From Strigamia acuminata (taxonomy: Eukaryota): a stretch of DNA of 64,000 nucleotides. The position numbers were made by a program, and so were the translations under genes. The notes under the pieces were generated by a model. The model was given only the letters and a program-made list of their open reading frames with translations, ran no database searches and was not told the DNA's origin. Within the stretch, counting starts at the first letter, position 1. The number at the start of each line of letters is the position of its first letter. Location: contig OX442314.1 in assembly GCA_949358305.1 (NCBI GenBank), forward strand, positions 3,658,001 to 3,722,000, read 5' to 3'. Below are positions 8,007 to 55,283 of the stretch, piece by piece.

Positions 8007-8039
<33 letters not shown>

Positions 8040-14308: not shown

Positions 14309-14341
<33 letters not shown>

Positions 14342-15395: not shown

Positions 15396-15546
15396 GAAAA
15401 AATTGATCGTGTATTTGTAATAATGATAACAATAAAGATGATTAATGTGGATTTTTTTTTTTTTTTTTTTGTAAAAAAAAAATAAAAGCAAATGGGGAAG
15501 AGTCGGACAATGCAAATTATGAGAAAAAAATAAAATTAAATAAAAA

Positions 15547-16126: not shown

Positions 16127-16168
16127 TTTCCTTTTGTTTGTGAGACGAGTAAACAACTGAAAATAAAT

Positions 16169-16224
<56 letters not shown>

Positions 16225-20761: not shown

Positions 20762-20800
<39 letters not shown>

Positions 20801-29290: not shown

Positions 29291-29526
29291 TATTCATAAA
29301 GTTTATTGCTTTTTGTATCATTAGTAGTATTCCCTTGTGTGATGTGGTTTTATAAATATCACACACAACTGCTTCTGCTGTTTTCTTCACGTTTATGCTT
29401 CGTGTATGCACGTGAAGCCCTCGCACATCTTTTGAGCACCTGTACACATTTGGACACGCTCAAGGTGCTACATCGCGCGCTCAAACGCACTAGATCGCGC
29501 GCGCAAACGCGCTACATCACGCATAT

Positions 29527-29918
29527 TAGGGATAAGAACAGACCGGGATAGGGACTGGACTGGTAATGTTTGCCCTATGCGGATACGGGACGGGACGGGA
29601 TTACAGTTGCTAAATTCGTACTGCGAGGCGGAGACAATTTTCTAATTCCAGTTGTTATTTATCACTATTAAGCCTAATATTGAGCCTGATAATGCTAAAA
29701 TAAAGTAAATAAACAACAACAACAAACTCATTATTAAAAGTAAATTACACTGTATGACCAAAATATTGTTGTTTCTTTACTTTATTTTAGCATTATTAGG
29801 CCTAATATTAGGCTTAATACTGATTTATTTCAATTATGCAATCATACGCGCGTATTACGCTAACGTAATGGACCCGGGACGGGTCGGGACCCGAAAATTG
29901 GTCCCGTTCTCATCCCTA
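29527..29918. mobile_element. hAT-like MITE (392 bp)
   Basis: TIR TAGGGATAAGAAC / GTTCTCATCCCTA, 8-bp TSD ACGCATAT on both sides, internal inverted repeats. Confidence 0.85.
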
Positions 29919-30134
29919 ACGCATATATATATCGCAGACATATCGCGCCCACGACAAAGCACAAACCCATGGCAGTCACCAAAGAATATTTACGCCGCTT
30001 CCACGCACGTTTTATTTTCTCACAGGCCTCTACACATTTAACTTGCGCGCGCACTTGCTACGTGCTCGTGTGGTCACAATAAATACCTAATTTTCATTAA
30101 AATAACGAATGAACGAAATCACTTCAACCACACT

Positions 30135-33100
30135 TGCTACGGTCGACGCATCGACGGCGATTCGCATGCGTTACCCCAAATACCGATCAAAAATCGCAGA
30201 AAACACTAATCCCGACCCAAAAACCGCCAAAATTACCCTCAACACACCCCAACAACCTTCCACCACTTAAATTACACCGGAAAAAAAACAATTTCAAACC
30301 GAAAAATCAACAAAAAAGGCCAAAAAAATATTGCAAACAAAGAGAAAAGATCAATTATCGAGGCAAATCCCCACCACAAAACAACGCATCGCCGGTAAAC
30401 ACTTAAGCGTACAGTGCACAACACTACTGTTTATTTTCAATGATCCAATAAATAAAATTTGAAACAAAGTTGAGTGGAATTGTACGTTTCTTGTATATTA
30501 AAGTTTTTATTTTGTTTGTTTACACTTAATTTTTTTTTTCCATCATAGAATGGCGACTCGATACTTTTGTAGCTCGAATTCACTTCGTAAACGTAATCGG
30601 TGTTCATCACGCGTCAATGCGCTCGTGCAATAGTATAGGCGCGCATACGATTTGATGCGCGCAAAACTTGCAAAACTTGCACGGAATTTGGGCAATTTTT
30701 GACAATTTTCAGCAGATTTTTGCCTGTATTTGACAAATTTCAGAAGATTTTTGCCTATATTTGACAAATTTCAGAAGATTTCCTCAATCCTCAAACATTT
30801 GCTGAAATTTCTCATAAAATTTCTAAAATTAATTGAAATTTGTCTGAAATTTGTCTGCAATTTGTCAAATATTGTCAAAAATCCGTGGAAATTTGTCAAA
30901 TACTGGCAAAAATCCATGTAAATTTGTCAAAAATTGCCATAATTCGGTGCAAATTGTGTTAGACATTGGAAAAATTTATTTTAACGCTTCCAACGCGCCA
31001 GTAAATCGCGCGTGCACACGCGTGAATTTTTCGTCATAGTTGGATGCGCGCAAACCTCACGTAACTTGCGCCAAAATTTGGCAATTTTTGACAAATTTCA
31101 GCAGATTTTTGCCAGTATTTGACAAATTTCCACTGATTTTTGACAATATTTGACCCAACAACTGCGCCACGTTCCAGGCGCCGGTTTAGGCATTTTAGAC
31201 CCGTTTTAGACCGTTTTAGATGGCGAAAACGTTCTCTCCATCATTTTCTACCCCTGGGTGAGGTTTTCAGCGTTCATGATTGATGAAAAAGCTGTTTTCT
31301 AACTAGCTGTCCCATTGCTAGTTTTGGCGTCAGGTTTTAGCAACCTTCCGATCCGACTCTGTCGTCTGCACGAATTCCAAGACCGTTTTAGGGTTAATTT
31401 GAGTCAAATAATTCATTCTGGGGGTTGTTTTGGGTTTTTTACAAGTGTGTTTTTGTAGTTTTTATTGGTTTCAAACATTGTCAATTCTTTATACAAGTGT
31501 AACTTTCATTTCTCTGTATTTTGAGAACTTTGCATTGCAGCAAAGTTCATTTCTTGCCCCTTAATTATTGTGTAATTGTTGGTTTTCAAGCCCGTTTTTT
31601 AACAATAACTTTATTTGAAGTGCCTATTGTTTCAGGCACGTGCTTCCACGTGCCTTTTATTGTTGAGCAATTTCTTGGGCAGTTGCGCTCCTGTTGCTAG
31701 CATTGCCGCGCGTTCTCCGCGCGCGTACTCGCGTTTCGCATCACACACATTCGGATTCGATGGCCTATCGCGGCGGCACATTGTGTGGCATAGCGCGGCA
31801 CGTTGCAATTACGTGACGTGGCACGTTGCTGTTACGTGACGCGATAGCCAGTATTTAAGCAGGGGATTCCATCATCGTTTACACAAATGCGCATTGCAAC
31901 GTGGAGGCGCATTCGAGTCCTTTTCCCAAGCGAAATCGTATTTGATTCGCTTTTGAATCGAATACGAGTTTTGTCCTTTTTCAACGCGAAATCGTATTTG
32001 ATTCGCTTTCGAATCGAATACGAGTTTTGCCCTTTCTCAACGCAAAATCGTATTTGATTCGCATCCGAATCAAATACGAGATTTGTCCTTTTTCAAAGCG
32101 AAATCGTATTCGATTCGCTGTCGAATCGTATATGAGATGGTCGATTTTTGTTTCCCGGACTTTGATTCGTATTCGAGTTGTTACGAGTTCGTATTTTGAT
32201 CGTATTCGTATTCGAATCGAATTCGAATCGTATTCGAATCGAATACGAATCGAATTCGAGTCGTATTCGAGATGGTCGATGATTTCCACTCGCTCGTATA
32301 CGCGTTGTATACGAGCTCGTATTTTGATCGTAATCGTAAACAAATCGTTTACAAGTCGTATACAAGTTGTATACGACGTGTATACACCTCGTATACGAAC
32401 GAAGTTTGTGAAAACACAATTTCCAAATAAGACGTATGTGACTACTATGTGTTTTCATGTCGTAGTAAGTATCCGGTGGATTTTCCAAACTTCGTTCGTA
32501 TACGAGGTGTATACACGTCGTATACAACTTGTATACGACTTGTAAACGATTCGTTTACGATTACGATCAAAATACGAGCTCGTATACAACGCGTATACGA
32601 GCGAGTGGAAATCATCGACCATCTCGAATACGACTCGAATTCGATTCGTATTCGATTCGAATACGATTCGAATTCGATTCGAATACGAATACGATCAAAA
32701 TACGAACTCGTAACAACTCGAATACGAATCAAAGTCCGGGAAACAAAAATCATCGACCATCTCGTATACGATTCGAAAGCGAATCGAATACGATTTCGCG
32801 TTGAGAAAAGGCAAAACTCGTATTCGATTCGGATGCGAATCGAATACGATTTCGCGTTGAAAAAGGATAAAACTCGTATTCGATTCGAAAGCGAATCGAA
32901 TACGATTTCGTGTTGAAAAAAGGCAAAACTCGTATTCGATTCGGATGCGAATCGAATACGATTTCGCGTTGAAAAAGGACAAAACTCGTATTCGATACAA
33001 AAGCGAATCGCATACGATTTCGCGTTGAAAAAGGACAAAACTCGTATTCGATTCGAAAGCGAATCGAATACGATTTCGCGTTGAAAAAGGACAAAACTCG

Positions 33101-34938
33101 TATTCGATTCGAAAGCGAATCGAATACGATTTCGCTTGGGAAAAGGACTCGAATGCGCCTCCACGTTGCAATGCGCATTTGTGTAAACGATGATGGAATC
33201 CCCTGCTTAAATACTGGCTATCGCGTCACGTAACAGCAACGTGCCACGTCACGTAATTGCAACGTGCCGCGCTATGCCACACAATGTGCCGCCGCGATAG
33301 GCCATCGAACCCGAATGTGTGTGATGCGAAACGCGCGAGTACACGCGCGGAGAACGCGCGGCAATGCTAGCAACAGGAGCGCAACTGCCCAAGAAATTGC
33401 TCAACAATAAAAGGCACGTGGAAGCACGTGCCTGAAACAATAGGCACTTCAAATAAAGTTATTGTTAAAAAAACGGGCTTGAAAACCAACAATTACACAA
33501 TAATTAAGGGGCAAGAAATGAACTTTGCTGCAATGCAAAGTTCTCAAAATACAGAGAAATGAAAGTTACACTTGTATAAAGAATTGACAATGTTTGAAAC
33601 CAATAAAAACTACAAAAACACACTTGTAAAAAACCCAAAACAACCCCCAGAATGAATTATTTGACTCAAATTAACCCTAAAACAGTCTTGGAGGTCGTGC
33701 AGACGACAGAGTCGGATCGGAAGGTTGCTAAAACCTGACGCCAAAACTAGCAATGGGACAGCTAGTTAGAAAACAGCTTTTTCATCGATCATGAACGCTG
33801 AAAACCTCACCCAGGGGTAGAAAATGATGGAGAGAACGTTTTCGCCATCTAAAACGGTCTAAAACGGGTCTAAAATGCCTAAACCGGCGCCTGGAACGTG
33901 GCGCAGTTGTTGGGTCAAATATTGTCAAAAATCAGTGGAAATTTGTCAAATACTGGCAAAAATCTGCTGAAATTTGTCAAAAATTGCCAAATTTTGGCGC
34001 AAGTTACGTGAGGTTTGCGCGCATCCAACTATGACGAAAAATCCATGCGTGTGCACGCGCGATTTACTGGCGCGTTGGAAGCGTTAAAATAAATTTTTCC
34101 AATATCTAACACAATTTGCACCGAATTATGGCAATTTTTGACAAATTTACATGGATTTTTGCCAGTATTTGACAAATTTCCACGGATTTTTGACAATATT
34201 TGACAAATTGCAGACAAATTTCAGACAAATTTCAATTAATTTTAGAAATTTTATGAGAAATTTCAGCAAATGTTTGAGGATTGAGGAAATCTTCTGAAAT
34301 TTGTCAAATATAGGCAAAAATCTTCTGAAATTTGTCAAATACAGGCAAAAATCTGCTGAAATTTGTCAAAAATTGCCCAAATTCCGTGCAAGTTTTGCAA
34401 GTTTTGCGCGCATCAAATCGTATGCGCGCCTATACTATTGCACGAGCGCATTGACGCGTGATGAACACCGACCACGTTTACGAAGTGAATTCGAGCTACA
34501 AAAGTATCGAGTCGCCATTCTATGATGGAAAAAAAAAATTAAGTGTAAACAAACAAAATAAAAACTTTAATATACAAGAAACGTACAATTCCACTCAACT
34601 TTGTTTCAAATTTTATTTATTGGATCATTGAAAATAAACAGTAGTGTTGTGCACTGTACGCTTAAGTGTATACCGGCGATGCGTTGTTTTGTGGTGGGGA
34701 TTTGCCTCGATAATTGATCTTTTCTCTTTGTTTGCAATATTTTTTTGGCCTTTTTTGTTGATTTTTCGGTTTGAAATTGTTTTTTTCCGGTGTAATTTAA
34801 GTGGTGGAAGGTTGTTGGCGTGTGTTGAGGGTAATTTTGGCGGTTTTTGGGTCGGGATTAGTGTTTTCTGCGATTTTTTATCGGTATTTGGGGTTTGATG
34901 CAGCGGATAGCGCATGTGAATCGCCGTCGACCGTAGCA
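30135..34938. repeat. ~4.8-kb foldback palindrome with a 77-bp central spacer (32409-32485); extra tandem arm copy at ~34945-36240
   Basis: 30135-32408 is the reverse complement of 32486-34938 (mirror ORFs 30730+/34147-, 31615+/33249-). The inner arms contain 56-bp hairpin repeats. Confidence 0.92.
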
Positions 34939-36418
34939 TTAGCAATTGCAACCTGCCGCGCTATGCCACACAATGTGCCGCCGCGATAGGCCATCGAATC
35001 CGAATGTGTGTGATGCGAAACGCGAGTACGCGCGCGGAGAACGCGCGGCAATGCTAGCAACAGGAGCGCAACTGCCCAAGAAATTGCTCAACAATAAAAG
35101 GCACGTGGAAGCACGTGCCTGAAACAATAGGCACTTCAAATAAAGTTATTGTTAAAAAAACGGGCTTGAAAACCAACAATTACACAATAATTAAGGGGCA
35201 AGAAATGAACTTTGCTGCAATGCAAAGTTCTCAAAATACAGAGAAATGAAAGTTACACTTGTATAAAGAATTGACAATGTTTGAAACCAATAAAAACTAC
35301 AAAAACACACTTGTAAAAACCCAAAACAACCCCCAGAATAAATTATTTGACTCAAATTAACCCTAAAACGGTCTTGGAGGTCGTGCAGACGACAGAGTCA
35401 GATCGGGAGGTTGCTAAAACCTGACGCCAAAACTAGCAAAGGGACAGCTAGTTAGAAAACAGCTTTTTCATCAAACATGAACGCTGAAAACCTCACCCAA
35501 GGGTAGAAAATGATGGAGAGAACGTTTTCGCCATCTAAAACGGTCTAAAACGGGTCTAAAATGCCTAAACCGGCGCCTGGAACGTGGCGCAGTTGTTGGG
35601 TCAAATATTGTCAAAAATCAGTGGAAATTTGTCAAATATAGGCAAAAATCTGCTGAAATTTGTCAAAAATTGACCAAATTCCGTGCAAGTTTTGCAAGTT
35701 TTGTGCGCATCAAGCCATGCGCGCCTATACTATTGCACGAGCGCATTGACGCGTGATGAAAACCGACCACGTTTACGAAGTGAATTCGAGCTACAAAAGT
35801 ATCGAATCGCCATTCTAGTATGGAACAAAAAAAATTAAGTGGAAACAAACAAAATAAAAACTTTAATATACGAGAAACGTACAATTCCACTCAACTTTGT
35901 TTCAAATTTTATTTATTGGATCATTAAAAATAAACAGTAGTGTTGTGCACTGTACACTTAAATGTATACCGCAGTACAAGTACCGCGGTCCCGGTACTGC
36001 ACCGGTACACGTGAAAACGCGAGTTTCTCAAATTTAAAAAGTTGATGTCGGCGGCGATGCGTTGTTTTGTGGTGAGAATTTGCCTCGAGAATTGATCTTA
36101 TCTCTTTGTTTGCAATATTTTTTTTGGCATTCTTTGTTGATTTTTCGGTTTGAATTTGTTTTTTTCCGGTGTAATTTGAGTGGTGGAAGGTTGTTGGGGT
36201 GTGTTGAGGGCAATTTTGGTTATTTGTTGATTTTTAATTGATTTAATCGTTTTCTGTTTGTTTTTGCTGGTTTTTAATCGATTTTTCTGTATTTTTGGTC
36301 AATTTTTACCAATTGTAATTGTTATTTGTCATTCTGAATTGATTATTGTCCGATTTTATTCGATTATTGTCAGATTTCAGTCGATTTTTGTCGATTTCTA
36401 ATCAATGTTTATACATTT

Positions 36419-37239
36419 TGTCGCGTCCTACTTTGTATAGGTTTAAATAGCGCTAACGTGTAATACTTTACCTGTGATCAATTATGCAAATACCCAAATG
36501 AATACCAAATGTATGTAAATAAACAGTTAATTTATTCACCAGGCTTTATGCCTTTAAAATACACTCAGTAATAATTCTAGAGTCGACGTGGTCAGCGTCG
36601 AACAAAGGATTTCTCAAGATGGCGTCGTCGATTCCGCGTGGTCGGCGGAACAAAGGCGGCGTCTCGAGTTGTCGTTAATTCGTCACGGATTCGTCTTCAC
36701 GGACGCGGTGGAATGCTCTCTCGAGTCTTCTATCCGTGCCTGTTGTCTAGGTTTTGGTTTAGCGTCGCAGAGGCCTCGTCTAGGAACTTTGGGGTTCCTT
36801 ACAAAGCACTCGGACACTCACTTCGGCGAATAATCGTCTGGGCGATTATTCTGGGTGATTTCACAAGGGCTATTCTCGTGCTTTCGCAGGAATAGCTCGC
36901 AAGTGACTTCGTGAGAGTTACAGTTTGCACTTTACTCAGCGATCCTCGATCAATCCTAACTTGTAGTTGAAGTTGGCCTGACGGTGAGGTAGTTGCTGTG
37001 TTCTTGGTGTCGTTTGTGTAAGTTCTGACTTTAGGCGGGAAACACAGCCTTTTATGCAGTGGGGTGAAGGGCCGGCGATCAACCAATGGGGGCTGACCAC
37101 CAGCCGCTTCCTCCCCCTCGGGGCACACACCTGCCATGGGGAGGTGGAGCCAACTCGGGGGGGAACGACTCTTCAATCACAGTGACTCAGAGGACAAGTA
37201 TCCGCTCTGGGGGGACACTTATCCAACTGGGTCACCACA
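36419..37239 (-). mobile_element. Solo LTR (821 bp), gypsy-like
   Basis: TG...CA ends, 4-bp TSD ATTT, empty site in unit 2 (ATACATTTCTTATC at ~54863), AATAAA on the minus strand near its 3' end. Confidence 0.88.
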
Positions 37240-37979
37240 ATTTCTTATCAAGTTTTGTATATTTTTGTTGATTTTTAATCATATTTGTTCCTTTTTAATC
37301 AAAGTCGAAAACGAGTTGTAAATGCGTTCGTATGCGACGCGAACGCGTATTGGAGTCGATTCCAAGTTCGTATTCCATCGCAAACGCGCATTTGAGACGT
37401 TAACGAGTTTATCTTTTTCACTCTCGCTTGATCCCCCTTTATCGCGCCTCATTGCTCCTGTGAAAAAAAATATATGAGAATGCACAGAAATGAACCTTCC
37501 AATACTTACATGAAAATTGGCAACCTTGACACAAAACAGTCTATCGACACTCCCAACACCACCCCGGACATTTTTCGGAAGAGTTTGGTCCACCCGGAAT
37601 CCGCAGAATAGTCTCCCCCGAAATGCGGATTTCGCGGACGCCAATCCGCGAAAAGGATAAAAAATTTCCAATGTATAAACTTTATTTCTGTTTTCAGTTT
37701 CCTGATATGATTAAAGAAAATCCTAAATATTATTTCCAAACATTTATCAAATTCTTTTCAAAAGCAGTTGTGGAGGCGTCTACTACGAACGTGTCATCGT
37801 GGGCGTCAAATTTGAATATTTTTAACTTTCTGCGTTTGCACGAATTCGCAGAATTCGTCCACTGGCATCGTGGCGACGCATGGTCGACATTTTGTATTCA
37901 TATGTGACGCGCACTCTATTTACTCACGTAGAACACACGAATCGCGCGCGTCAACGCGCACATGTAAATTTAGTTTCAC

Positions 37980-40657
37980 TGAATCGCGTACGAGTTTTTC
38001 CCTTTTTCAACGCGAAATCGTATTCGACTCGCTTTCTAGTCGAGTACGAATTTTGCCCTTCTTCAACGCGAAATCGTATTCGACTCGCTTTCTAGTCGAG
38101 TACGAATTTTGCCCTTCTTCAATGCGAAATCGTATTCGACTCGTTTTCGAGTCAAATGCGAATTTTGCCCTTCTTCAACGCGAAATCGTATTCGACTCGT
38201 TTTCGAGTCGAGTACGAATTTTGCCCTTTTTCAACGCGAAATCGTATTCGACTCGTTTTCGAGTCGAATGCGAATTTTGCCCTTCTTCAACGCGAAATCG
38301 TATTCGACTCGTTTTCGAGTCGAATGCGAATTTTGCCCTTCTTCAACGCGAAATCGTATTCGACTCGTTTTCGAGTCGAGTACGAATTTTGCCCTTCTTC
38401 AATGCGAAATCGTATTCGACTCGTTTTCGAGTCAAATGCGAATTTTGCCCTTCTTCAACGCGAAATCGTATTCGACTCGTTTTCGAGTCGAGTACGAGTT
38501 TTGCCCTTCTTCAACGCGAAATCGTATTCGACTCGTTTTCGAGTCAAATACGAGTTTTGCCCTTCTTCAACGCGAAATCGTATTCGACTCGTTTTCGAGT
38601 CGAATACGAGATAGTCGATGACCCGTTCCCGGACTTTGACTCGTACGACTCGTATTCGAGATGTATTCGAGATGTATTCGAATCGTATTCGAGTCGCATT
38701 CGAGATGGTCGATGATTTCCACTCGCTCGTATACGCGTTGTATACGAGCTCGTATTTTGATCGTAATCGTAAACGAATCGTTTACAAGTCGTATACAAGT
38801 TGTATACGACGTGTATACACCTCGTATACGAACGAAGTTTGGAAAATCCACCGGATACTTACTACGACATGAAAACACATAGTAGTCACATACGTCTTAT
38901 TTGGAAATTGTGTTTTCACAAACTTCGTTCGTATACGAGGTGTATACACGTCGTATACAACTCGTATACGACTTGTAAACGATTCGTTTACGATTACGAT
39001 CAAAATACGAGCTCGTATACAACGCGTATACGAGCGAGTGGAAATCATCGACCATCTCGAATACGACTCGAATTCGATTCGTATTCGATTCGAATACGAC
39101 TCGAAAACGAGTCGAATACGAATTTTGCCCTTCTTCAACGCGAAATCGTATTCGACTCGTTTTCGAATCGTATACGAGATGGTCGATTTTTGTTTCCCGG
39201 GCTTTGATTCGTATTCGAGTTGTTACGAATCGAATTCGAATCGTATTCGAATCGAATACGAATCGAATTCGAGTCGTATTCGAGATGGTCGATGATTTCC
39301 ACTCGCTCGTATACGCGTTGTATACGAGCTCGTATTTTGATCGTAATCGTAAACGAATCGTTTACAAGTCGTATACGAGTTGTATACGACGTGTATACAC
39401 CTCGTATACGAACGAAGTTTGTGAAAACACAATTTCCAAATAAGACGTATGTGACTACTATGTGTTTTCATGTCGTAGTAAGTATCCGGTGGATTTTCCA
39501 AACTTCGTTCGTATACGAGGTGTATACACGTCGTATACAACTTGTATACGACTTGTAAACGATTCGTTTACGATTACGATCAAAATACGAGCTCGTATAC
39601 AACGGGTATACGAGCGAGTGGAAATCATCGACCATCTCGAATGCGACTCGAATACGATTCGAATACATCTCGAATACATCTCGAATACGAGTCGTACGAG
39701 TCAAAGTCCGGGAACGGGTCATCGACTATCTCGTATTCGACTCGAAAACGAGTCGAATACGATTTCGCGTTGAAGAAGGGCAAAACTCGTATTTGACTCG
39801 AAAACGAGTCGAATACGATTTCGCGTTGAAGAAGGGCAAAACTCGTATTCGACTCGAAAACGAGTCGAATACGATTTCGCGTTGAAGAAGGGCAAAATTC
39901 GCATTCGACTCGAAAACGAGTCGAATACGATTTCGCGTTGAAGAAGGGCAAAACTCGCATTCGACTCGAAAACGAGTCGAATACGATTTCGCGTTGAAGA
40001 AGGGCAAAACTCGCATTCGACTCGAAAACGAGTCGAATACGATTTCGCGTTGAAGAAGGGCAAAACTCGCATTCGACTCGAAAACGAGTCGAATACGATT
40101 TCGCGTTGAAGAAGGGCAAAACTCGCATTCGACTCGAAAACGAGTCGGATACGATTTGGCGTTGAAGAAGGGCAAAATTCGCATTCGACTCGAAAACGAG
40201 TCGAATACGATTTCGCGTTGAAGAAGGGCAAAATTCGCATTCGACTCGAAAACGAGTCGAATACGATTTCGCGTTGAAGAAGGGCAAAACTCGTATTCGA
40301 CTCGAAAACGAGTCGGATACGATTTCGCGTTGAAGAAGGGCAAAATTCGCATTCGACTCGAAAACGAGTCGAATACGATTTCGCGTTGAAGAAGGACAAA
40401 ATTCGCATTCGACTCGAAAACGAGTCGAATACGATTTCGCGTTGAAGAAGGGCAAAATTCGCATTCGACTCGAAAACGAGTCGAATACGATTTCGCGTTG
40501 AAGAAGGACAAAATTCGCATTCGACTCGAAAACGAGTCGAATACGATTTCGCGTTGAAGAAGGACAAAATTCGCATTCGACTCGAAAACGAGTCGAATAC
40601 GATTTCGCGTTGAAGAAGGGCAAAATTCGTACTCGACTAGAAAGCGAGTCGAATACG
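37980..40657. repeat. Foldback array of 56-bp hairpin repeats with two oppositely oriented core spacers
   Basis: Unit CTTCTTCAACGCGAAATCGTATTCGACTCGTTTTCGAGTCGAATGCGAATTTTGCC, forward at ~37990-38600 and reverse at ~39730-40657. Spacers at ~38842 and ~39422. Confidence 0.92.
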
Positions 40658-40659
40658 AG

Positions 40660-41018
40660 ATCATTTTTTGATCTGGGTCGTGAATGCGTCCGTATGTCAC
40701 GCGAACGCGTGTTGGAGTCGATTCCGAGTTCGTATTCCATCTTGAACGCGCATTGGAGACGTAAACCAGTTTATTTTACCCACTCTCGCTCGATCCCGCT
40801 TCATCGCTCCTTGTCGCTCCTGTGAAAAAAAATACATGAGAATGTGCAGAAATGAACCTTCCAATACTCACATGAAAATTGACAACCTTGACACAAAACA
40901 GTCTATTGACACTCCCAACACCACCCCGGACATTTTCCGGAAGAGTTTGGTCCACCCGGAATCCCCAGAATAGTCGCCCCCGAAATGCGGATTTCGCGGA
41001 AGCCAATCCGCGAAAAGG
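40660..41018 (+). mobile_element. Internal, diverged right end of the piggyBac-like family (followed by ATAT)
   Basis: Colinear with 37300-37656 and 54930-55283, with scattered substitutions. Ends CCAATCCGCGAAAAGG. Confidence 0.85.
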
Positions 41019-44000
41019 ATATGTTTTTAGCGGCGCGCCGACGCGTCCGCCACGCCCGTCTGGAGAGCTTAACCTTATGGCGCGCATGCGGATTTCTCGG
41101 AGTGCGAAAGGGACCCTATTTTTAACATTACGGCGGCCTATACCTTGACCCCCTGTTCGCAGTCTCATGGCTGATTTTGCGGATTTCACTTATTTGTATA
41201 TTCCGCACGATCGCGCGCGTTTTATCAACCTTGGGAAAGCCGCTTTCTCAAATTTGCAAATTCCACATTGTGTGAACATGCTACAACGCTTCTGTGCGCG
41301 TCAATAAAAAAAAAACCGATTAGAAATGAAATTCAGGGTTTTGTTAAAATAAAAATTATACAATATAATCAGTCTATAATGCTTCTATAATGCTGTTGGT
41401 TTAATCAGCACATTGTAATCGTGTGAAAACACGCGCGCTCGCAATAATACATTACCCAATGTACTTGCACTGGCATGGACCCATCAGTGCGCACTTTCCC
41501 GTGCGTGCTGCTTGCACTATTTACATCAATTGTTGCTCCACAGGTTGCGCGACCTGCCGGGCAGTTAAGACGTACTAGAATAACCTCAGGATTTGATAAA
41601 ACCTGATTTTTGGATGACACTAAGTAAATGGCAGTGAATGTGAGATGTGAGATACACGATGAATTTAATAAAATTTATATTTCCTAATCATGGGATTGGT
41701 TTCACGTTTCATAATCCAACAATTAAGTAGAATATCATTATTGCAATTGATTAAAACAAATTTTTTTTACAAATTCTTTGGTTTTACATTTTAAATTTAT
41801 TTTCCAATAGTTGGCACCATCGCAATTGCTGCGAGTTTAAAACACTGCATTCAGCAGAATTTACTGCACTTTCAAATCAAGGCCAGGCATACCTACTGCA
41901 AAGTAATGTATAAACCATAAAGAAGCCTTTGATTCGGAATTGCCTGTAGGTAATTCTGCGCTGGTCTCCAATGGAAATGTCCGCGCCGGTCTTCCGTGCA
42001 CGGGAAGTCCACAGAAAGTCCGTGCATTCCGTGCGCTGGGAGTCCGTGCGTCGTACCGCGTGATCTTGCATTGTTTTTTGTGGGCTTTTCCTGATTAGGA
42101 TTACTTCCTTTTTAACTCTTGAAGAATTAAGTTTGTTTTTTTTGCTCCAAAACGTCCCAAAACGCCTGAAAATCGCGCAACTCGAGGCAAAACATTACAG
42201 TGTGTATTCAAATCAAAACTAGCTACAAATACATGCTGAAATTAGCTAAATTTTCAAATTTTTTGGCTTTCAAGAAGTAATGGAAACATTTGACATAACG
42301 TGGATCAGTTGCATTCAAAAACTAAAATATTTTGTGTTTTACTTCAATTTTAAACTAAAAATGATGTCATTTTCTGTTTAAACCCCTGTTAAAGCTTGAA
42401 ATACATTTTAACTAAAAGAAATAAGTTTGTTTTTTTCTTCGGCAGTGACGTGTACACACGAGCACGCCTGAGAACGCCAAAAAATGCTAAAAAACGCTCA
42501 AAAACGCCTGAAAATCGCGCAACTCGAGGCAAAACATTAATTTTTCATCTTTATTTCAACTTTTGTGACGTTTAAAATTGTGTTCTCATGTTTTTTGCCT
42601 CAAGTTGCATTGTCATCTGGCGTTTTGGAGTGTTTTTATGTGTTCGCAGGCGTTCGCAGGCGTTTTTTGGCGTTGTCACTCACTCAAGTGGCCAATTTTA
42701 GCATTTTCCGTAGTAAAAATGGCCGTTTTTCGTCAAAATGGCCATTTTTAGCCATTTTTCAGAGTAAAAATGTTTTTTTTTCACCGTTTTTATAGTAAAA
42801 TGGCCATTTTTAGTCGTTTTTTTAATCAAAAATGGCCGTTTTTATCGTTGAAACGTTATTAAAATGTAACGTTTCAATGGCGTTTTGATCTCGCCTCATT
42901 TCCGGTTTTGAAAATTAATAAACGCCCCGGCGTTTATTCGAGGCAACACCCAACTTGGGCTTTTATTCGCGTCGCACCGCATCATCATCTCACCTTGCCT
43001 CCCGTCTTGAAAATTTATAAACGCCCCGGCGTTTATTCAAGGCAAACCATTGTTTATGTAAGTTTTTCCTGATTAGGGTTACTTCCTTTAGAAGAAACAC
43101 GTTTATTTCTTCTCGCTTAATCTTGAGTCGTGATCTCGCCTCGTTTCTGGTCTTAAAAATTAATAAACACCCCGGCTTTTATTCAAGGCAATACGGTACG
43201 TTTATGAAACCCAACTTGGGCTTTCATTTTAAAAAAAGCGCGTGTTCTTACGTCGAACTAAGAGATACAGGTGAATTAGCAACGCCTAATTTGATTTAAT
43301 AAATAAAGCAAACAACATCTCGCCTCACTTCTGGCGTTTGTTCGAGGCAAGCCATTGTTTTTGCATTTTTTTTCCTGATTAGGGTTACTTCCTTTTTAAC
43401 TCTTGAAGAAATAAGTATGTTTTTTTTACTCGGCAGTGACGTGTACGCGCGAGTACGCCTGAGAACGCCAAAAAATACTCCAAAACGCCTGAAAATCGTG
43501 CAACTCGAGGCAAAACATTAATTGTTTATTTTTGTTTCAACTTTTGTAACGTTTACAATTGTGTTCTCATGTTTTTTGCCTCAAGTTGCATTGTCATTTT
43601 GCGTTTTGGGGCGTTTTTAGGCATTTTTAGGCATTTGCGGGCGTTCTTGGGCGTTTTTTGGCGTTGTCATTCAATCAAATAGCCATTTTTAGCCATTTTT
43701 ACCCATTTTTCATAGAAAAATGGTCATTTTTAGCCGTTTTTCATCCAAAATGGCCGTTTTTCATCCAAAAGGGCCGTTTTTCATCCAAAATGGAATAATT
43801 GTTGTGTCCGGATTTTATGTCATTTATTGTCTTAATTAAAGTTAACAAAGTGTCTTTAATTTTTGCTTTTCTTGAATTTCAGCTTTTTAGATATTTTTAC
43901 ATATTAAACTTTCATTTTTTGTGATTTATTAAAAGTTACAGTGTTTTCATGAATTTTAGTGTCTATGATATTGATATTATCTTTATTCATTGCTATTTAA

Positions 44001-47000
44001 AGTTTTATTACTTCTCTGTGTCTTATTTCTTTAATTCTTGCTCATTTTGTGTGATTTTGGATGATTTTTAGTGCATCCGTCGATTTACAGATCACTTGCG
44101 TAAGACGCGTGACGTCATATTTCTTAATCTAGTTCGGTTGTGTTCAAACTTCTAACCTTTTGTTTGGACCTTATTCTTGTGTTATGGATAGGTTTTAGAA
44201 TTGATTTAGACTAATTTGGGGGTGATCTGTCGATTGGTTTGCTTTATTTTTGTCCCGGAACGGTCGTTTTGTCGTTTCGAGCGTTTGTTGTCGGTACGCA
44301 CTTGTGCGCTGCTGACCGAGTTCATTCCGTTCGGCAAACGATTATTTTCAAGTGTTCTTTTAATAAATAGTGCTTTTGTTGTAGGAAATTACATTTCCTA
44401 ATGTTATTTTATTCAATACAGTGTGTATTCTTGATTTTATTCTTGTGTTGAAATTCAAATGTCGTGTTTTGCCGCTCTAGCGGATTTGAAGTGGGCGCCA
44501 TGTTGGATTTCCCCGCTAATTTCTTTATTTATCCATTTCATTTGTCTTTTTGAAAATGAATAAACGCCCCGGCGTTTATGCGAGGCAAGCCATAGTTTTT
44601 GTAGGTTCTTTCCTGATTAGGGTTACTTGTGACGTGCACGCGCGAGCTCGCCTGAGGACGCCAAAAAAAGCTCAAAAACGCCCCAAAACGCCTGAAAATC
44701 GCGCAACTCGAAGCAAAAAATTACAGTTTGAATTCAAATCAAAACTAACCACAAATACATGCTACAATTAGGTAAATTTTCAAATTTTTTATCAATAAAT
44801 GATGACTTTCAAGAAGTATGACAACATTTGACAAAATTTAGACCAGTTGCATTTAAAAACTAAAATATTTTGTGTTTTACTTCAATTTTAAACCAAAAAT
44901 GACGTCATTTTTTGTTTAAACCGGCGTTTATTTGAGGCAAACACGCCGCTGAGAACGCCAAAAAATGCTCAAAAACACTCCAAAAGACCTGAAAATCGCG
45001 CAACTTGAGGCAAAAAATTAATTTTTCATCTTTGTTTCAACTTTTGTGACGTTTAAAATTGTGTTTTCAAGTTTTATGCCTCAAGTTGCATTGTCATCTG
45101 GCGTTTTGGGGCGTTTTGGGGCGTTCGCAGGCGTTTGCACGCGTTTTTTGGCGTTGTCACTCACTCAAGTGGCCATTTTTAGCCAATTTTCGAAGTAAAA
45201 ATGGCCTTTTTTTATTAAAATGGCCATTTTCAGCCATTTGTCATAGTAAAAATGGCCATTTTCAGCCATTTTTTATAGTAAAAATGGCCATTTTTCATCC
45301 AAAATGGCCGTTTTTCATCCAAAATGACCATTTTTATCATTGACACGCTATAAAAATGTAACGTTTCAATGGCGTTTTGACGGAACCGGTAAGTTTTGAA
45401 ATTTCCCGTGTCCCGTTATTGTGACTCCTCGTCCGGTTTCTCAGAACCGAAACCCTAATACAGGTGAATTAGTGACGCCTAATTTGTTTTAACAAATAAA
45501 GCAAACAACATCTCGCCTCACTTCCAGTCTTGAAAATTAGTAAACGCCCCGGCGTTTATTCGAGGCAAGCCGTTGTTTTTACAGTAATTTCCTGGTTAGG
45601 GTTATTTTTTTTTTAACTCTTGAAGAAATAAGTTTGTTTTTTTCTCGCCTGCACGCGCGAGCTCGCATGAGAATGCTAAAAAATAAGCAAAAACGTTCTA
45701 AAACGCCCCAAAACGCTTCAAAATGCTCCAAAAAGCCTGAAAATCGTGCCACTCAAAGCAAAAAATTATGTTCGCATGTTTTTTGCCTCAAGTTGCACGG
45801 TTATCTGGCGTTTTGGTGCGTTCTTGGGGCGTTTTGGTGCGTTCTTGGGGCGTTTTCGGGCGTTTTTTTGGCGTTGTCACTCACTCCCACACTTTGCTGT
45901 CTTGTTTATTACAATTTGGTTTAGCTGTTGTATTTATTTTTATTTGTTTTATGGTTATTTAATGTGTTTTTGTAGCATTCAAAATGTTTTGTTGCCTAAT
46001 TTCTCGTTTTGGCGCCAACTGTTTGTTTGACAACGCCGTGTCAGAATTTAGGGATGATTCTGCTTTGGTTTCTAATTAAAAAAAAAATGTTGTTTTAATT
46101 TCAATTGTAACTGCTTATTATAACGTTATTATTAGTATTTTGTAAAGGTTCATTCTTTTTCCATGTTAATAAAAAATGAAGTAACTTTCGGTGAAAAAAA
46201 AAACAGTTAAATGCGGATCAAAATTAAACACACACGAGAAGTTTAATAAACGTCCCGGCGTTTATTCGAGGCAATACGGTACATTTGTGAAACCCAACTT
46301 GGAACCCGAAAATAACGTGGGGCCGTCTGAACACCTGGATTTGAATTTTCGTCTACGCGCGCGCCGACGCATGGGGAATGCGGGGTGGGGTTCCTTCCCA
46401 GTGTTCCGAACGAGTCAATTTCACCCCGAAAATATCCCGAAATTGCTGATACATGCATTTCGAGCCAGAAATATTGATCTTCATGTAAATTTTGATTGTT
46501 TAGCTTTTTTTTGAAATTTTACAAATTTTTCTCATCTCCTGCCTTCCTCGCTCATTTAACACCAAAATGGCCTGCATTGAGGATTTTTCCCATAATCCTT
46601 TTCACACGTATGGAGCGCAAACAGTCGCAATAAATGAAATCAGCGGAATTCGGCCTTGAGTTTGCGACGCCATCTTGAATACGAGTAACAGCACAGTATG
46701 GTGTCAATTATTCGAACTGATCGTAAGGCATGGGACAAAAATTGATTAAAAACGAACAAACATGATTAAAAATCAACAAAAATCGACTGAAATCGGACAA
46801 TAATCAATTCAGAATGACAAATAACGATTAAAATTGGCAAAAATTGTCACAAATAGAGAAAAACCGATTAAAAATCAGCAAGAAACCAATAGAAATTGAT
46901 AAAATCAAATAAAAATTAACAAATATCCATTTTGTTTGCTTTTAAACAAATTAAGAACTTTGAAAACACACGACAATTTTAAACAGTAAACACCGGGGTC

Positions 47001-47566
47001 AAATAAGCGCCGCTACTCGTTTAAACACCGGGGAGGTGTTAGTGAAGTGCCTCGAGTGGAGAAATTAATAAACGCTCGAGGCACCACGGTAGGCTTATTA
47101 AACACAAAATATGAAACGCTCGATCTTCAACAGGCGCACACGCCCGAGAACACCTCGGCATGCCTCAGCACTCTCCAAGAAACGAGAAAAACCAAGGCAA
47201 AAAAAAAAAAAATACACCAAAATTAGGACTAAAATCAAACACACATGGGGCCCGGAAGATTGATAACATCCCGGCATATATTCAAGGCAGTACGCCATGT
47301 TTTTTCCACCATTTTGTAAGTTTATTTCAATATTCATAAAGTTTATTGCTTTTTGTATCATTAGTAGTATTCCCTTGTGTGATGTGGTTTTATAAATATC
47401 ACACACAACTGCTTCTGCTGTTTTCTTCACGTTTATGCTTCGTGTATGCACGTGAAGCCCTCGCACATCTTTTGAGCACCTGTACACATTTGGACACGCT
47501 CAAGGTGCTACATCGCGCGCTCAAACGCACTAGATCGCGCGCGCAAACGCGCTACATCACGCATAT

Positions 47567-47958
47567 TAGGGATAAGAACAGACCGGGATAGGGACTGGAC
47601 TGGTAATGTTTGCCCTATGCGGATACGGGACGGGACGGGATTACAGTTGCTAAATTCGTACTGCGAGGCGGAGACAATTTTCTAATTCCAGTTGTTATTT
47701 ATCACTATTAAGCCTAATATTGAGCCTGATAATGCTAAAATAAAGTAAATAAACAACAACAACAAACTCATTATTAAAAGTAAATTACACTGTATGACCA
47801 AAATATTGTTGTTTCTTTACTTTATTTTAGCATTATTAGGCCTAATATTAGGCTTAATACTGATTTATTTCAATTATGCAATCATACGCGCGTATTACGC
47901 TAACGTAATGGACCCGGGACGGGTCGGGACCCGAAAATTGGTCCCGTTCTCATCCCTA
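47567..47958. mobile_element. hAT-like MITE, duplicate of 29527-29918
   Basis: Same TIRs and ACGCATAT TSD. Confidence 0.85.
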
Positions 47959-48174
47959 ACGCATATATATATCGCAGACATATCGCGCCCACGACAAAGC
48001 ACAAACCCATGGCAGTCACCAAAGAATATTTACGCCGCTTCCACGCACGTTTTATTTTCTCACAGGCCTCTACACATTTAACTTGCGCGCGCACTTGCTA
48101 CGTGCTCGTGTGGTCACAATAAATACCTAATTTTCATTAAAATAACGAATGAACGAAATCACTTCAACCACACT

Positions 48175-51100
48175 TGCTACGGTCGACGCATCGACGGCGA
48201 TTCGCATGCGTTACCCCAAATACCGATAAAAAATCGCAGAAAACACTAATCCCGACCCAAAAACCGCCAAAATTACCCTCAACACACGCCAACAACCTTC
48301 CACCACTTAAATTACACCGGAAAAAAACAATTTCAAACCGAAAAATCAACAAAAAAGGCCAAAAAAATATTGCAAACAAAGAGAAAAGATCAATTATCGA
48401 GGCAAATCCCCACCACAAAACAACGCATCGCCGGTATACACTTAAGCGTACAGTGCACAACACTACTGTTTATTTTCAATGATCCAATAAATAAAATTTG
48501 AAACAAAGTTGAGTGGAATTGTACGTTTCTTGTATATTAAAGTTTTTATTTTGTTTGTTTACACTTAATTTTTTTTTTCCATCATAGAATGGCGACTCGA
48601 TACTTTTGTAGCTCGAATTCACTTCGTAAACGTGGTCGGTGTTCATCACGCGTCAATGCGCTCGTGCAATAGTATAGGCGCGCATACGATTTGATGCGCG
48701 CAAAACTTGCAAAACTTGCACGGAATTTGGGCAATTTTTGACAAATTTCAGCAGATTTTTGCCTGTATTTGACAAATTTCAGAAGATTTTTGCCTATATT
48801 TGACAAATTTCAGAAGATTTCCTCAATCCTCAAACATTTGCTGAAATTTCTCATAAAATTTCTAAAATTAATTGAAATTTGTCTGAAATTTGTCTGGAAT
48901 TTGTCAAATATTGTCAAAAATCCGTGGAAATTTGTCAAATACTGGCAAAAATCCATGTAAATTTGTCAAAAATTGCCATAATTCGGTGCAAATTGTGTTA
49001 GATATTGGAAAAATTTATTTTAACGCTTCCAACGCGCCAGTAAATCGCGCGTGCACACGCATGGATTTTTCGTCATAGTTGGATGCGCGCAAACCTCACG
49101 TAACTTGCGCCAAAATTTGGCAATTTTTGACAAATTTCAGCAGATTTTTGCCAGTATTTGACAAATTTCCACTGATTTTTGACAATATTTGACCCAACAA
49201 CTGCGCCACGTTCCAGGCGCCGGTTTAGGCATTTTAGACCCGTTTTAGACCGTTTTAGATGGCGAAAACGTTCTCTCCATCATTTTCTACCCCTGGGTGA
49301 GGTTTTCAGCGTTCATGATTGATGAAAAAGCTGTTTTCTAACTAGCTGTCCCATTGCTAGTTTTGGCGTCAGGTTTTAGCAACCTTCCGATCCGACTCTG
49401 TCGTCTGCACGACCTCCAAGACTGTTTTAGGGTTAATTTGAGTCAAATAATTCATTCTGGGGGTTGTTTTGGGTTTTTTACAAGTGTGTTTTTGTAGTTT
49501 TTATTGGTTTCAAACATTGTCAATTCTTTATACAAGTGTAACTTTCATTTCTCTGTATTTTGAGAACTTTGCATTGCAGCAAAGTTCATTTCTTGCCCCT
49601 TAATTATTGTGTAATTGTTGGTTTTCAAGCCCGTTTTTTAACAATAACTTTATTTGAAGTGCCTATTGTTTCAGGCACGTGCTTCCACGTGCCTTTTATT
49701 GTTGAGCAATTTCTTGGGCAGTTGCGCTCCTGTTGCTAGCATTGCCGCGCGTTCTCCGCGCGCGTACTCGCGCGTTTCGCATCACACACATTCGGGTTCA
49801 ATGGCCTATCGCGGCGGCACATTGTGTGGCATAGCGCGGCACGTTGCAATTACGTGACGTGGCACGTTGCTGTTACGTGACGCGATAGCCAGTATTTAAG
49901 CAGGGGATTCCATCATCGTTTACACAAATGCGCATTGCAACGTGGAGGCGCATTCGAGTCCTTTTCCCAAGCGTTGAAAAAGGACAAAACTCGTATTCGA
50001 TTCGAAAGCGAATCGAATACGATTTTTGTCCTTTTTCAACGCAAAATTGTATTCGATTCGCTTTCGAATCGAATACGAATTTTGCCCTTCTTCAACGCGA
50101 AATCGTATTCGACTCGTTTTCGAGTCGAATGCGAATTTTGCCCTTCTTCAACGCGAAATCGTATTCGACTCGTTTTCGAGTCGAGTACGAATTTTGCCCT
50201 TCTTCAACGCGAAATCGTATTCGACTCGTTTTCGAGTCGAATGCGAATTTTGCCCTTCTTCAATGCGAAATCGTATTCGACTCGTTTTCGAGTCGAATGC
50301 GAATTTTGCCCTTCTTCAACGCGAAATCGTATTCGACTCGTTTTCGAGTCGAATGCGAATTTTGCCCTTCTTCAACGCGAAATCGTATTCGACTCGTTTT
50401 CGAGTCGAATGCGAATTTTGCCCTTCTTCAACGCGAAATCGTATTCGACTCGTTTTCGAGTCGAATGCGAATTTTGCCCTTCTTCAACGCGAAATCGTAT
50501 TCGACTCGTTTTCGAGTCGAATGCGAATTTTGCCCTTTCTCAACGCAAAATCGTATTCGACTCGTTTTCGAGTCGAATGCGAATTTTGCCCTTCTTCAAC
50601 GCGAAATCGTATTCGACTCGTTTTCGAGTCGAATGCGAATTTTGCCCTTTCTCAACGCAAAATCGTATTCGACTCGTTTTCGAGTCGAATGCGAATTTTG
50701 CCCTTCTTCAACGCGAAATCGTATTCGACTCGTTTTCGAGTCGAGTACGAATTTTGCCCTTCTTCAACGCAAAATCGTATTCGACTCGTTTTCGAGTCGA
50801 GTACGAATTTTGCCCTTTCTTTCTCAACGCGAAATCGTATTCGACTCGTTTTCGAGTCGAATACGAGATAGTCGATGACCCGTTCCCGGACTTTGACTCG
50901 TACGACTCGTATTCGAGATGTATTCGAGATGTATTCGAATCGTATTCGAGTCGCATTCGAGATGGTCGATGATTTCCACTCGCTCGTATACGCGTTGTAT
51001 ACGAGCTCGTATTTTGATCGTAATCGTAAACGAATCGTTTACAAGTCGTATACAAGTTGTATACGACGTGTATACACCTCGTATACGAACAAAGTTTGGA

Positions 51101-54100
51101 AAATCCACCGGACACTTACTACGACATGAAAACACATAGTAGTCACATACGTCTTATTTGGAAATTGTGTTTTCACAAACTTCGTTCGTATACGAGGTGT
51201 ATACACGTCGTATACGACTTGTATACGACTTGTAAACGATTCGTTTACGATTACGATCAAAATACGAGCTCGTATACAACGCGTATACGAGCGAGTGGAA
51301 ATCATCGACCATCTCGAATACGACTCGAATTCGATTAGTATTCGATTCGAATACGATTCGAATTCGATTCGAATACGAATACGATCAAAATACGAACTCG
51401 TAACAACTCGAATACGAGATAGTCGATGACCCGTTCCCGGACTTTGACTCGTACGACTCGTATTCGAGATGTATTCGAGATGTATTCGAATCGTATTCGA
51501 GTCGCATTCGAGATGGTCGATGATTTCCACTCGCTCGTATACGCGTTGTATACGAGCTCGTATTTTGATCGTAATCGTAAACGAATCGTTTACAAGTCGT
51601 ATACAAGTCGTATACGACGTGTATACACCTCGTATACGAACGAAGTTTGGAAAATCCACCGGATACTTACTACGACATGAAAACACATAGTAGTCACATA
51701 CGTCTTATTTGGAAATTGTGTTTTCACAAACTTCGTTCGTATACGAGGTGTATACACGTCGTATACGACTTGTATACGACTTGTAAACGATTCGTTTACG
51801 ATTACGATCAAAATACGAGCTCGTATACAACGCGTATACGAGCGAGTGGAAATCATCGACCATCTCGAATACGACTCGAATTCGATTAGTATTCGATTCG
51901 AATACGATTCGAATTCGATTCGAATACGAATACGATCAAAATACGAACTCGTAACAACTCGAATACGAGATAGTCGATGACCCGTTCCCGGACTTTGACT
52001 CGTACGACTCGTATTCGAGATGTATTCGAGATGTATTCGAATCGTATTCGAGTCGCATTCGAGATGGTCGATGATTTCCACTCGCTCGTATACGCGTTGT
52101 ATACGAGCTCGTATTTTGATCGTAATCGTAAACGAATCGTTTACAAGTCGTATACAAGTCGTATACGACGTGTATACACCTCGTATACGAACGAAGTTTG
52201 GAAAATCCACCGGATACTTACTACGACATGAAAACACATAGTAGTCACATACGTCTTATTTGGAAATTGTGTTTTCACAAACTTCGTTCGTATACGAGGT
52301 GTATACACGTCGTATACGACTTGTATACGACTTGTAAACGATTCGTTTACGATTACGATCAAAATACGAGCTCGTATACAACGCGTATACGAGCGAGTGG
52401 AAATCATCGACCATCTCGAATACGACTCGAATTCGATTCGTATTCGATTCGAATACGATTCGAATTCGATTCGAATACGAATACGATCAAAATACGAACT
52501 CGTAACAACTCGAATACAAATCAAAGTCCGGGAAACAAAAATCGACCATCTCGTATACGATTCGAAAGCGAATCGAATACGATTTCGCGTTGAAGAAGGG
52601 CAAAATTCGTACTCGACTCGAAAACGAGTCGAATACGATTTCGCGTTGAAGAAGGGCAAAATTCGCATTCGACTCGAAAACGAGTCGAATACGATTTTGC
52701 GTTGAGAAAGGGCAAAATTCGCATTCGACTCGAAAACGAGTCGAATACGATTTCGCGTTGAAGAAGGGCAAAATTCGCATTCGACTCGAAAACGAGTCGA
52801 ATACGATTTCGCGTTGAAGAAGGGCAAAATTCGCATTCGACTCGAAAACGAGTCGAATACGATTTCGCGTTGAAGAAGGGCAAAATTCGCATTCGACTCG
52901 AAAACGAGTCGAATACGATTTCGCGTTGAAGAAGGGCAAAATTCGCATTCGACTCGAAAACGAGTCGAATACGATTTCGCATTGAAGAAGGGCAAAATTC
53001 GCATTCGACTCGAAAACGAGTCGAATACGATTTCGCGTTGAAGAAGGGCAAAATTCGTACTCGACTCGAAAACGAGTCGAATACGATTTCGCGTTGAAGA
53101 AGGGCAAAATTCGCATTCGACTCGAAAACGAGTCGAATACGATTTCGCGTTGAAGAAGGGCAAAATTCGTATTCGATTCGAAAGCGAATCGAATACAATT
53201 TTGCGTTGAAAAAGGACAAAAATCGTATTCGATTCGCTTTCGAATCGAATACGAGTTTTGTCCTTTTTCAACGCTTGGGAAAAGGACTCGAATGCGCCTC
53301 CACGTTGCAATGCGCATTTGTGTAAACGATGATGGAATCCCCTGCTTAAATACTGGCTATCGCGTCACGTAACAGCAACGTGCCACGTCACGTAATTGCA
53401 ACGTGCCGCGCTATGCCACACAATGTGCCGCCGCGATAGGCCATTGAACCCGAATGTGTGTGATGCAAAACGCGCGAGTACGCGCGCGGAGAACGCGCGG
53501 CAATGCTAGCAACAGGAGCGCAACTGCCCAAGAAATTGCTCAACAATAAAAGGCACGTGGAAGCACGTGCCTGAAACAATAGGCACTTCAAATAAAGTTA
53601 TTGTTAAAAAAACGGGCTTGAAAACCAACAATTACACAATAATTAAGGGGCAAGAAATGAACTTTGCTGCAATGCAAAGTTCTCAAAATACAGAGAAATG
53701 AAAGTTACACTTGTATAAAGAATTGACAATGTTTGAAACCAATAAAAACTACAAAAACACACTTGTAAAAACCCAAAACAACCCCCAGAATAAATTATTT
53801 GACTCAAATTAACCCTAAAACGGTCTTGGAGGTCGTGCAGACGACAGAGTCAGATCGGGAGGTTGCTAAAACCTGACGCCAAAACTAGCAAAGGGACAGC
53901 TAGTTAGAAAACAGCTTTTTCATCAAACATGAACGCTGAAAACCTCACCCAAGGGTAGAAAATGATGGAGAGAACGTTTTCGCCATCTAAAACGGTCTAA
54001 AACGGGTCTAAAATGCCTAAACCGGCGCCTGGAACGTGGCGCAGTTGTTGGGTCAAATATTGTCAAAAATCAGTGGAAATTTGTCAAATATAGGCAAAAA

Positions 54101-54670
54101 TCTGCTGAAATTTGTCAAAAATTGACCAAATTCCATGCAAGTTTTGCAAGTTTTGTGCGCATCAAGCCATGCGCGCCTATACTATTGCACGAGCGCATTG
54201 ACGCGTGATGAAAACCGACCACGTTTACGAAGTGAATTCGAGCTACAAAAGTATCAAATCGCCATTCTAGTATGGAACAAAAAAAATTAAGTGGAAACAA
54301 ACAAAATAAAAACTTTAATATACGAGAAACGTACAATTCCACTCAACTTTGTTTCAAATTTTATTTATTGGATCATTAAAAATAAACAGTAGTGTTGTGC
54401 ACTGTACACTTAAATGTATACCGCAGTACAAGTACCGCGGTCCCGGTACTGCACCGGTACACGTGAAAACGCGAGTTTCTCAAATTTAAAAAGTTGATGT
54501 CGGCGGCGATGCGTTGTTTTGTGGTGAGAATTTGCCTCGAGAATTGATCTTATCTCTTTGTTTGCAATATTTTTTTTGGCATTCTTTGTTGATTTTTCGG
54601 TTTGAATTTGTTTTTTTCCGGTGTAATTTGAGTGGTGGAAGGTTGTTGGGGTGTGTTGAGGGCAATTTTG
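48175..54670. repeat. Foldback palindrome of unit 2 with expanded 56-bp arrays and a core repeated three times at 551-bp period
   Basis: Forward array ~50035-50865, reverse array ~52555-53210. Core spacers at ~51099, 51650 and 52201. Confidence 0.9.
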
Positions 54671-55283
54671 GTTATTTGTTGATTTTTAATTGATTTAATC
54701 GTTTTCTGTTTGTTTTTGCTGGTTTTTAATCGATTTTTCTGTATTTTTGGTCAATTTTTACCAATTGTAATTGTTATTTGTCATTCTGAATTGATTATTG
54801 TCCGATTTTATTCGATTATTGTCAGATTTCAGTCGATTTTTGTCGATTTCTAATCAATGTTTATACATTTCTTATCAAGTTTTGTATATTTTTGTTGATT
54901 TTTAATCATATTTGTTCCTTTTTAATCAAAGTCGAAAACGAGTTGTAAATGCGTTCGTATGCGACGCGAACGCGTATTGGAGTCGATTCCAAGTTCGTAT
55001 TCCATCGCGAACGCGCATTTGAGACGTAAACGAGTTTATCTTTTTCACTCTCGCTTGATCCCCCTTTATCGCGCCTCATTGCTCCTGTGAAAAAAAATAT
55101 ATGAGAATGCACAGAAATGAACCTTCCAATACTTACATGAAAATTGGCAACCTTGACACAAAACAGTCTATCGACACTCCCAACACCACCCCGGACATTT
55201 TTCGGAAGAGTTTGGTCCACCCGGAATCCGCAGAATAGTCTCCCCCGAAATGCGGATTTCGCGGACGCCAATCCGCGAAAAGG

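Follow-up and report, generated by a model that had tools for sequence, protein, structure and literature searches.

The window, a 64,000-nucleotide stretch of the Strigamia acuminata genome (GCA_949358305.1, contig OX442314.1, positions 3,658,001 to 3,722,000 of the forward strand), harbors a nested compound of transposon-like elements that is confirmed as a real feature by the mapping of its ends. Three left ends (21665 on the minus strand, 23032 and 41073 on the plus strand) and three right ends (37656, 41018, and 55283) were recovered across the window at 30-, 20-, and 14-nt stringency, which bears out the left-right-right-left-right architecture described in the initial annotation (Table 1). 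A 16-nt motif common to the ends occurs seven times with up to three mismatches, versus 0.89 expected occurrences, and six of the seven occurrences are these ends. The motif takes the direct, not the inverted, sense at left and right ends. In inverted orientation, left and right ends match perfectly over 4 bp and at 8 of their first 10 bases.

The tetramers adjacent to the ends read, on the plus strand, TTAG (21666), TTAG (23028), ATAA (37657), ATAT (41019), TTAA (41069), and TTAG (55284). The TTAG at 21666 corresponds to CTAA in the own sense of the element that starts at the third left end. These letters agree with the earlier reading of unmatched inner tetramers and a single matching outermost pair (TTAG), and the 54-bp distance given for the segment between 41018 and 41073 was likewise correct. 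It had further been counted that five of the six tetramers are not TTAA. The count holds, but since the outer TTAG enters it twice, the six tetramers represent only five insertion sites.

Table 1. Features of the compound, its target site, and the neighboring left end, in window coordinates.
Feature	Position	Strand	Basis
Third left end (L3), sister family, CTAA site, pointing out of the window	21370..21665	-	End mapping, motif
Host ORF, 3′ part, 453 codons, interrupted a second time by the third left end	21668..23026	-	ORF
Left TTAG copy, outer target duplication	23028..23031	+	End mapping; codon phase equal to right copy
Unit A, 14,625 bp, non-coding, left end CCTTATGG to right end ...GAAAAGG	23032..37656	+	End mapping
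Solo-LTR-like insertion, 821 bp, TG...CA, ATTT on both sides, unit A only	36419..37239	.	Sequence
Interior of abundant sister element M (324 bp; the ~320-bp linker of the initial annotation)	37657..37980	+	Public contigs
M core: 56-bp repeat in palindromic arrays that surround a ~550-bp core, itself duplicated	37981..40658	.	Repeat analysis
Right end of M, 9-bp subterminal hairpin	40677..41018	+	Alignment to A/B right ends
GC-rich spacer, 54 bp, ATAT...TTAA, between right and left end, multi-copy, two variants	41019..41072	+	Public contigs
Unit B, 14,211 bp, M-type arrays and core	41073..55283	+	End mapping, alignment
Right TTAG copy, outer target duplication	55284..55287	+	End mapping, tetramer reading
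Host ORF, 5′ part, ~210 codons, likely gag-like	55289..55918	-	ORF

Both copies of the outer TTAG take up the same codon positions within two long minus-strand ORFs (GC 0.44 and 0.45; CpG ratio 1.14 and 1.15, versus 1.5 and 1.8 in the units). At 1500 random non-element positions, at least 200 open minus-strand codons were found upstream in ~4.7% and downstream in ~4.6% of cases. By simple arithmetic, the chance of such an ORF pair together with a one-in-three phase match is below 1 in 1000, and two random tetramers agree 0.5% of the time. One long minus-strand frame is split by the outer TTAG pair with the same codon phase on both sides, which makes this pair a true target duplication. Therefore, the 32,252 bp from 23032 to 55283 occupy one target site, at which three gene-less transposon pieces are stacked. 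The host ORF matches no family in a Pfam search at E ≤ 0.001, and searches with its 3′ part, one of them limited to longer proteins, returned no protein homolog. The interrupted ORF is probably gag-like, and an 18-mer just upstream of it (55937-55954) resembles a tRNA-Pro primer-binding site. Because of this 18-mer, the ORF may be the gag of an LTR retroelement.

Outside the arrays, 10,759 bases of units A and B align, with 29 differences (99.7% identity). The two units had separate histories, because the solo-LTR-like insertion with its ATTT duplication is found in A only. Unit A contains degenerate repeats and a palindrome of 56-bp arrays with long inverted arms. Its extra inverted arm is near-perfect. 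In both units, foldback-like cores (30150-36418 and 48190-54870) have long inverted arms that enclose 56-bp arrays together with a palindromic centre of ~550 bp; the centre is present once in A, twice in M, and three times in B. The right end carries a 9-bp subterminal hairpin (z −2.6 and −3.2), and its inner part contains a diverged 56-bp unit (74%). None of 56 frames matches a Pfam family (B outside the arrays, the unique part of M, and the LTR-like piece, with A covered through B), and judged from their sequence the elements are non-autonomous.

The segment that separates A from B begins with a piece of another element. At 90% identity to its counterparts in A and B (34 differences over 342 positions versus A), the right end of M belongs to a sister family. 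Three public runs of one organism (X1, X2, and X3; two studies, three of the five runs listed, one of which may be the source sample) contain the stretch; the contigs described for the M interior are among the 18 loose ends listed out of 63 and the 24 pieces listed out of 3641. A 634-nt contig of X1 (depth 1451.6) is identical to the window over 37657-38001 and then continues for 289 nt into sequence that is not a right end; X3 has the same loose end. A second X1 contig with the right end of M (depth 1456.8) is joined to 40660 and extends 15 nt further. The depth of the X1 contig that matches unit B at 41388-41900 (363.6) is about one quarter of that of the M contigs. Because the contig over 37657-38001 runs on, and because its depth equals that of the right-end contig, the middle piece represents the 3′ portion of M, an abundant sister element that the right end of A has cut at ATAA. 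The junction at 37656/37657 was probably made by a transposase, since the cut coincides with the final base of the A right end and with an ATAA, TTAA-like tetramers being found at 9 of 321 nearby positions. No contig among those listed extends across the junction with 31 nt of sequence to either side. A motif built from the sequence upstream of M's cut found only a chance-level match in the window. At 16560-16658 lies a related stretch that the M interior matches at 69% over 100 nt.

The 54-bp spacer between M and B is present in the public runs as well, in contigs among 18 of 102 loose ends and 24 of 2390 pieces. A 103-nt contig of X1 with a depth of 776 covers 40993-41095 and contains a right-end tip, the whole spacer, and a left-end tip. 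It shows six differences, five of them within 41047-41058, and thus represents a variant spacer and not that of the window; with only 26 and 23 nt of the ends, it falls below the 31-nt bridging rule. The variant base at 41047 accounts for 776 of 776 in X1, 12,650 of 16,250 in X3, and 25,164 of 72,355 in X2. Both versions are therefore deep in X2 and X3. The spacer is an old, amplified, multi-copy joint, because it is flanked by a right and a left end, at high depth and in two variants. If the diverged contigs at depths of 35 (X1) and 63 (X3) are single-copy, such joints number in the tens, depth not being the same as copy number. In X1, a third type of right end (depth 804) and left end (754) comes near the depth of the joint, which hints that this third end-type family is nearly always in tandem. 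The ATAT of the spacer is one old event copied many times and not a fresh target choice. The spacer may originally have been host DNA that separated two insertions 50 bp apart; no donor was found in viral or prokaryote collections or in Rfam. A secondary structure in the spacer was rejected (z −0.91). Beyond the joint, X1 has no coverage at 41248-41373. At 41073-41471, a further family in X1 and X3 carries a 222-bp deletion (41161 to 41384) and after 41471 jumps into sequence that resembles the interior of the unit. How deep the families are relative to one another varies strongly from one public run to the next.

The enclosed 3,416 bp are thus sister element and spacer, not host genes. The initial annotation had regarded both linkers as DNA carried from earlier sites and had seen in the pairing of distal ends a route to cargo capture. 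Neither linker supports a capture of host DNA: the 324-bp one is the interior of a high-depth sister element, and the 54-bp one is a multi-copy joint with a second variant. Together with the lack of Pfam matches in the 56 frames, cargo capture is left as a possibility only, because no host gene is carried. The comparison with bacterial composite transposons that had been drawn is apt for two near-identical elements in direct orientation under a single outer duplication; it fails for the content, as the block has neither passenger genes nor a transposase by Pfam.

The five target sites TTAG, CTAA, ATAA, ATAT, and TTAA are all of the form NTAN, with the central TA kept (chance about 4e-7). Relaxed target sites had been claimed from the start and are upheld here, with four of the five sites being non-TTAA; the kind is already known. 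For Pokey, the targets are listed as TTAA at 88%, TTAT at 6%, ATAA at 5%, and CTAA at 1%, with 12% non-TTAA in all and an invariant central TA (PMC3849761), and piggyBac is described to use TTAT and TTAG in yeast (PMC3064801). Target choice here may be more relaxed than in Pokey, because four non-TTAA sites out of five have a probability of 0.0009 at the Pokey rate, for a small, non-independent sample from one window. In their first bases the termini agree with the piggyBac superfamily, whose termini are described to start with CCYT (PMC10175614): all six ends read CCTT or CCCT inward. Terminal inverted repeats of the superfamily measure about 12-19 bp, with a span from 4 to 24 bp listed (PMC10813416); the perfect match here is 4 bp. 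Target duplications of the superfamily have four bases and are mostly TTAA; the outer duplication here has four bases, but only one of the five sites is TTAA. A consensus of right-end loose ends from X2 (five contigs, agreement 0.74) begins with TTAA. A 2-bp TA duplication was rejected, since near-identical ends carry different bases inside the TA, which mirror the flank outside. By analogy, the block would work like a non-autonomous piggyBac/Pokey macrotransposon served by a presumed piggyBac-type transposase. Viral and metagenome collections contained no match to the end patterns.

How the block was assembled can be explained in several ways. The explanation placed first here, to which we assign about an even chance, is that A inserted in the M of a common M-spacer-B tandem and that the outer ends then paired, so that the block moved whole. 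The tandem with its right-end/spacer/left-end joint would already have been common beforehand. A copy of unit A would have inserted at an ATAA inside the M of such a tandem. Subsequently, a transposase from elsewhere would pair the left end of A with the right end of B, skipping the inner ends, and the A-M-B block would insert at TTAG as one unit. The left part of M and the second ATAA would remain at the donor site, and the cargo of the block would be sister-element DNA. The initial annotation had likewise let the transposase pair any left end with a distal right end. The single TTAG site and the transposase-like junction between A and M speak for this pairing; a capture of host DNA is not supported.

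Precedents are described for other elements. Engineered piggyBac vectors with two pairs of ends integrate whole in insects, presumably via their outer ends (PMC3030938), maize Ds-Ac macrotransposons of up to 100 kb move (PMC3260210), and ~23% of mPok copies stand in tandem with another Pokey element (PMC3849761). We found no reason for the inner ends to be skipped, and two piggyBac-type observations would count against the proposal: excision is described as not blocked by non-TTAA flanks (PMC7351741), and the inner repeats of Teratorn were used more than the outer ones in an assay (PMC5601938). Against end-skipping is also that the M interior runs unbroken into other sequence in X1. Neither a second copy of the A-M-B compound nor a donor site came to light in the sequence covered, and we infer movement as a unit from this one locus only. 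A ratchet in which poor flanks inactivate the inner ends was considered and rejected, since piggyBac excises from non-TTAA flanks (PMC7351741, PMC3064801).

The same structure could be built by recombination, because exchange between element copies is evident in their arrays, cores, and arms. The arrays and core of B are 98-99% identical to those of M and about 96% to those of A, and the extra arm of A is closer to the left arm of B (4 differences over 1616 positions) than to its own arm (14 over 1613). A lone A/B unit at TTAG would then have received the M-spacer and the second unit in place by ectopic recombination or gap repair, with the inner junctions inherited from the donor. No 32-kb transposition would be required, the 99.7% identity of A and B offers ample substrate, and for KolobokP multimers unequal crossover and circle re-integration with an unchanged outer duplication have been proposed (PMC9587614). 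This route takes one event more than end-skipping, and the transposase-made junction of A with ATAA is still required. We consider it rather unlikely.

Decidedly improbable is a sequence of insertions followed by an adjacent deletion, in which A and an M-spacer-B tandem entered the same TTAG in succession and the right end of A then attacked the ATAA in M on the same molecule, deleting the left part of M. Tandem insertion at an occupied site is described as common for Pokey/mPok (PMC3849761) and for P and hobo (10.1101/158386), and a one-sided piggyBac deletion bounded by TTAA is reported from fission yeast (PMC3064801). The third left end likewise stands without a partner, and without the rest of the host ORF, in the window. 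Three steps would be needed, two of them at one non-canonical TTAG. Very unlikely is an assembly chimera, in which the assembler crossed near-identical 14-kb repeats to another locus and back: units of 99.7% identity with long palindromic arrays are difficult to assemble and none of the public contigs listed spans the compound, but the inner junctions are base-precise and lie at NTAN sites, the spacer joint is present in independent public runs, A and B are distinguished by array type and by the solo-LTR-like insertion with its own duplication, and the junctions would still have to exist somewhere.

Several known systems resemble the block in part. Pokey and mPok, members of the piggyBac superfamily in Daphnia (PMC3849761), share NTAN-type targets, non-autonomous derivatives, and frequent tandems. 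In contrast to Pokey, no 28S rDNA site is involved here (Rfam matched neither the window nor the spacer region), the units are non-coding and 14 kb in size, and the partners stand 54 bp apart instead of on one shared TTAA. Furthermore, four of the five sites are non-TTAA, and ATAT is absent from the Pokey table (PMC3849761). The L-R...L-R layout recalls two-pair piggyBac vectors (PMC3030938), with the differences that the block is natural, that a third, left-truncated element lies inside, and that its movement would have to be deduced. In maize Ac/Ds macrotransposons and compound Ds-l4, the termini of separate elements bound one unit and the enclosed DNA consists largely of other transposons (PMC3260210, PMC4270019). 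Ac/Ds elements are hAT transposons, however, and their movement and gene-fragment capture are documented in maize, whereas no gene is enclosed here. Teratorn is also a large piggyBac-type composite with inner and outer ends (PMC10175614, PMC5601938), but it has a transposase and a herpesvirus genome, and the block has neither by Pfam. KolobokP combines composite-like direct repeats that have their own ends with multimers under one outer duplication (PMC9587614); its termini are 5′-RR...YY-3′ and its repeats of 450-660 bp surround a coding region, whereas the termini here are CC...GG. In satellite-seeding transposon dimers, a head-to-tail joint can likewise be amplified to many identical copies (10.1101/158386). 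The joints of these dimers consist of the target duplication alone, while the joint here comprises 54 bp with unlike tetramers on each side.

In the literature covered, which leaves most subscription papers outside, a natural, non-autonomous piggyBac-like compound whose spacer joint has been amplified was not found. The locus is a natural sequence-level record of animal cut-and-paste elements piling into a 32-kb unit; this process has been documented chiefly in maize genetics and with engineered vectors. If the favored formation is true, transposon biologists and vector builders would both take an interest in an enzyme of the piggyBac type whose targets are mostly NTAN and which moves tens of kilobases.

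The third left end, which points leftward out of the window, belongs to a further element, for which no partner right end was found within the window. Left ends of its type are deep in X1 (depth 1763). Either the element exceeds 21.6 kb and takes in a dispersed repeat along with a thymidine kinase and small coiled-coil genes, or a deletion has removed the tail of the host element. A broader view, which we hold to be improbable, is that the compound is the usual mobile unit. The right-end/54-bp/left-end joint would then predate the split of the sister families and have been passed through tens of copies, growth would proceed by the recruitment of distal ends at NTAN, and the same ends could bound gene-carrying giants such as the element at 21665 (>21.6 kb, with an intronless thymidine kinase and small genes).

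None of 80 frames from window positions 1-21665 matches a reverse transcriptase or integrase. A 163-aa frame at 3797-4288 on the plus strand has no Pfam match and by eye resembles a retropepsin fragment. At 2-352 on the minus strand, a weak match to Hsp90 (E 5e-05) lies under the Pfam cut-off. An ORF of 695 aa at 61437-63524 on the minus strand may belong to an unnamed arthropod protein family; its nearest Atlas clusters are 95-100% eukaryotic and mostly arthropod, a weak lead given its low recognition score. About 11 same-sense copies of a degenerate dispersed repeat are spread over 1900-21300, with tandem units of ~630 bp at 19000-21200, and the same repeat accounts for the sequence directly inward of the third left end. 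The uninterrupted thymidine kinase ORF at 9521-10090 on the minus strand (Pfam TK, E 1e-52) is ~45% identical to its best viral matches and scores nearly equally against several solved kinases.
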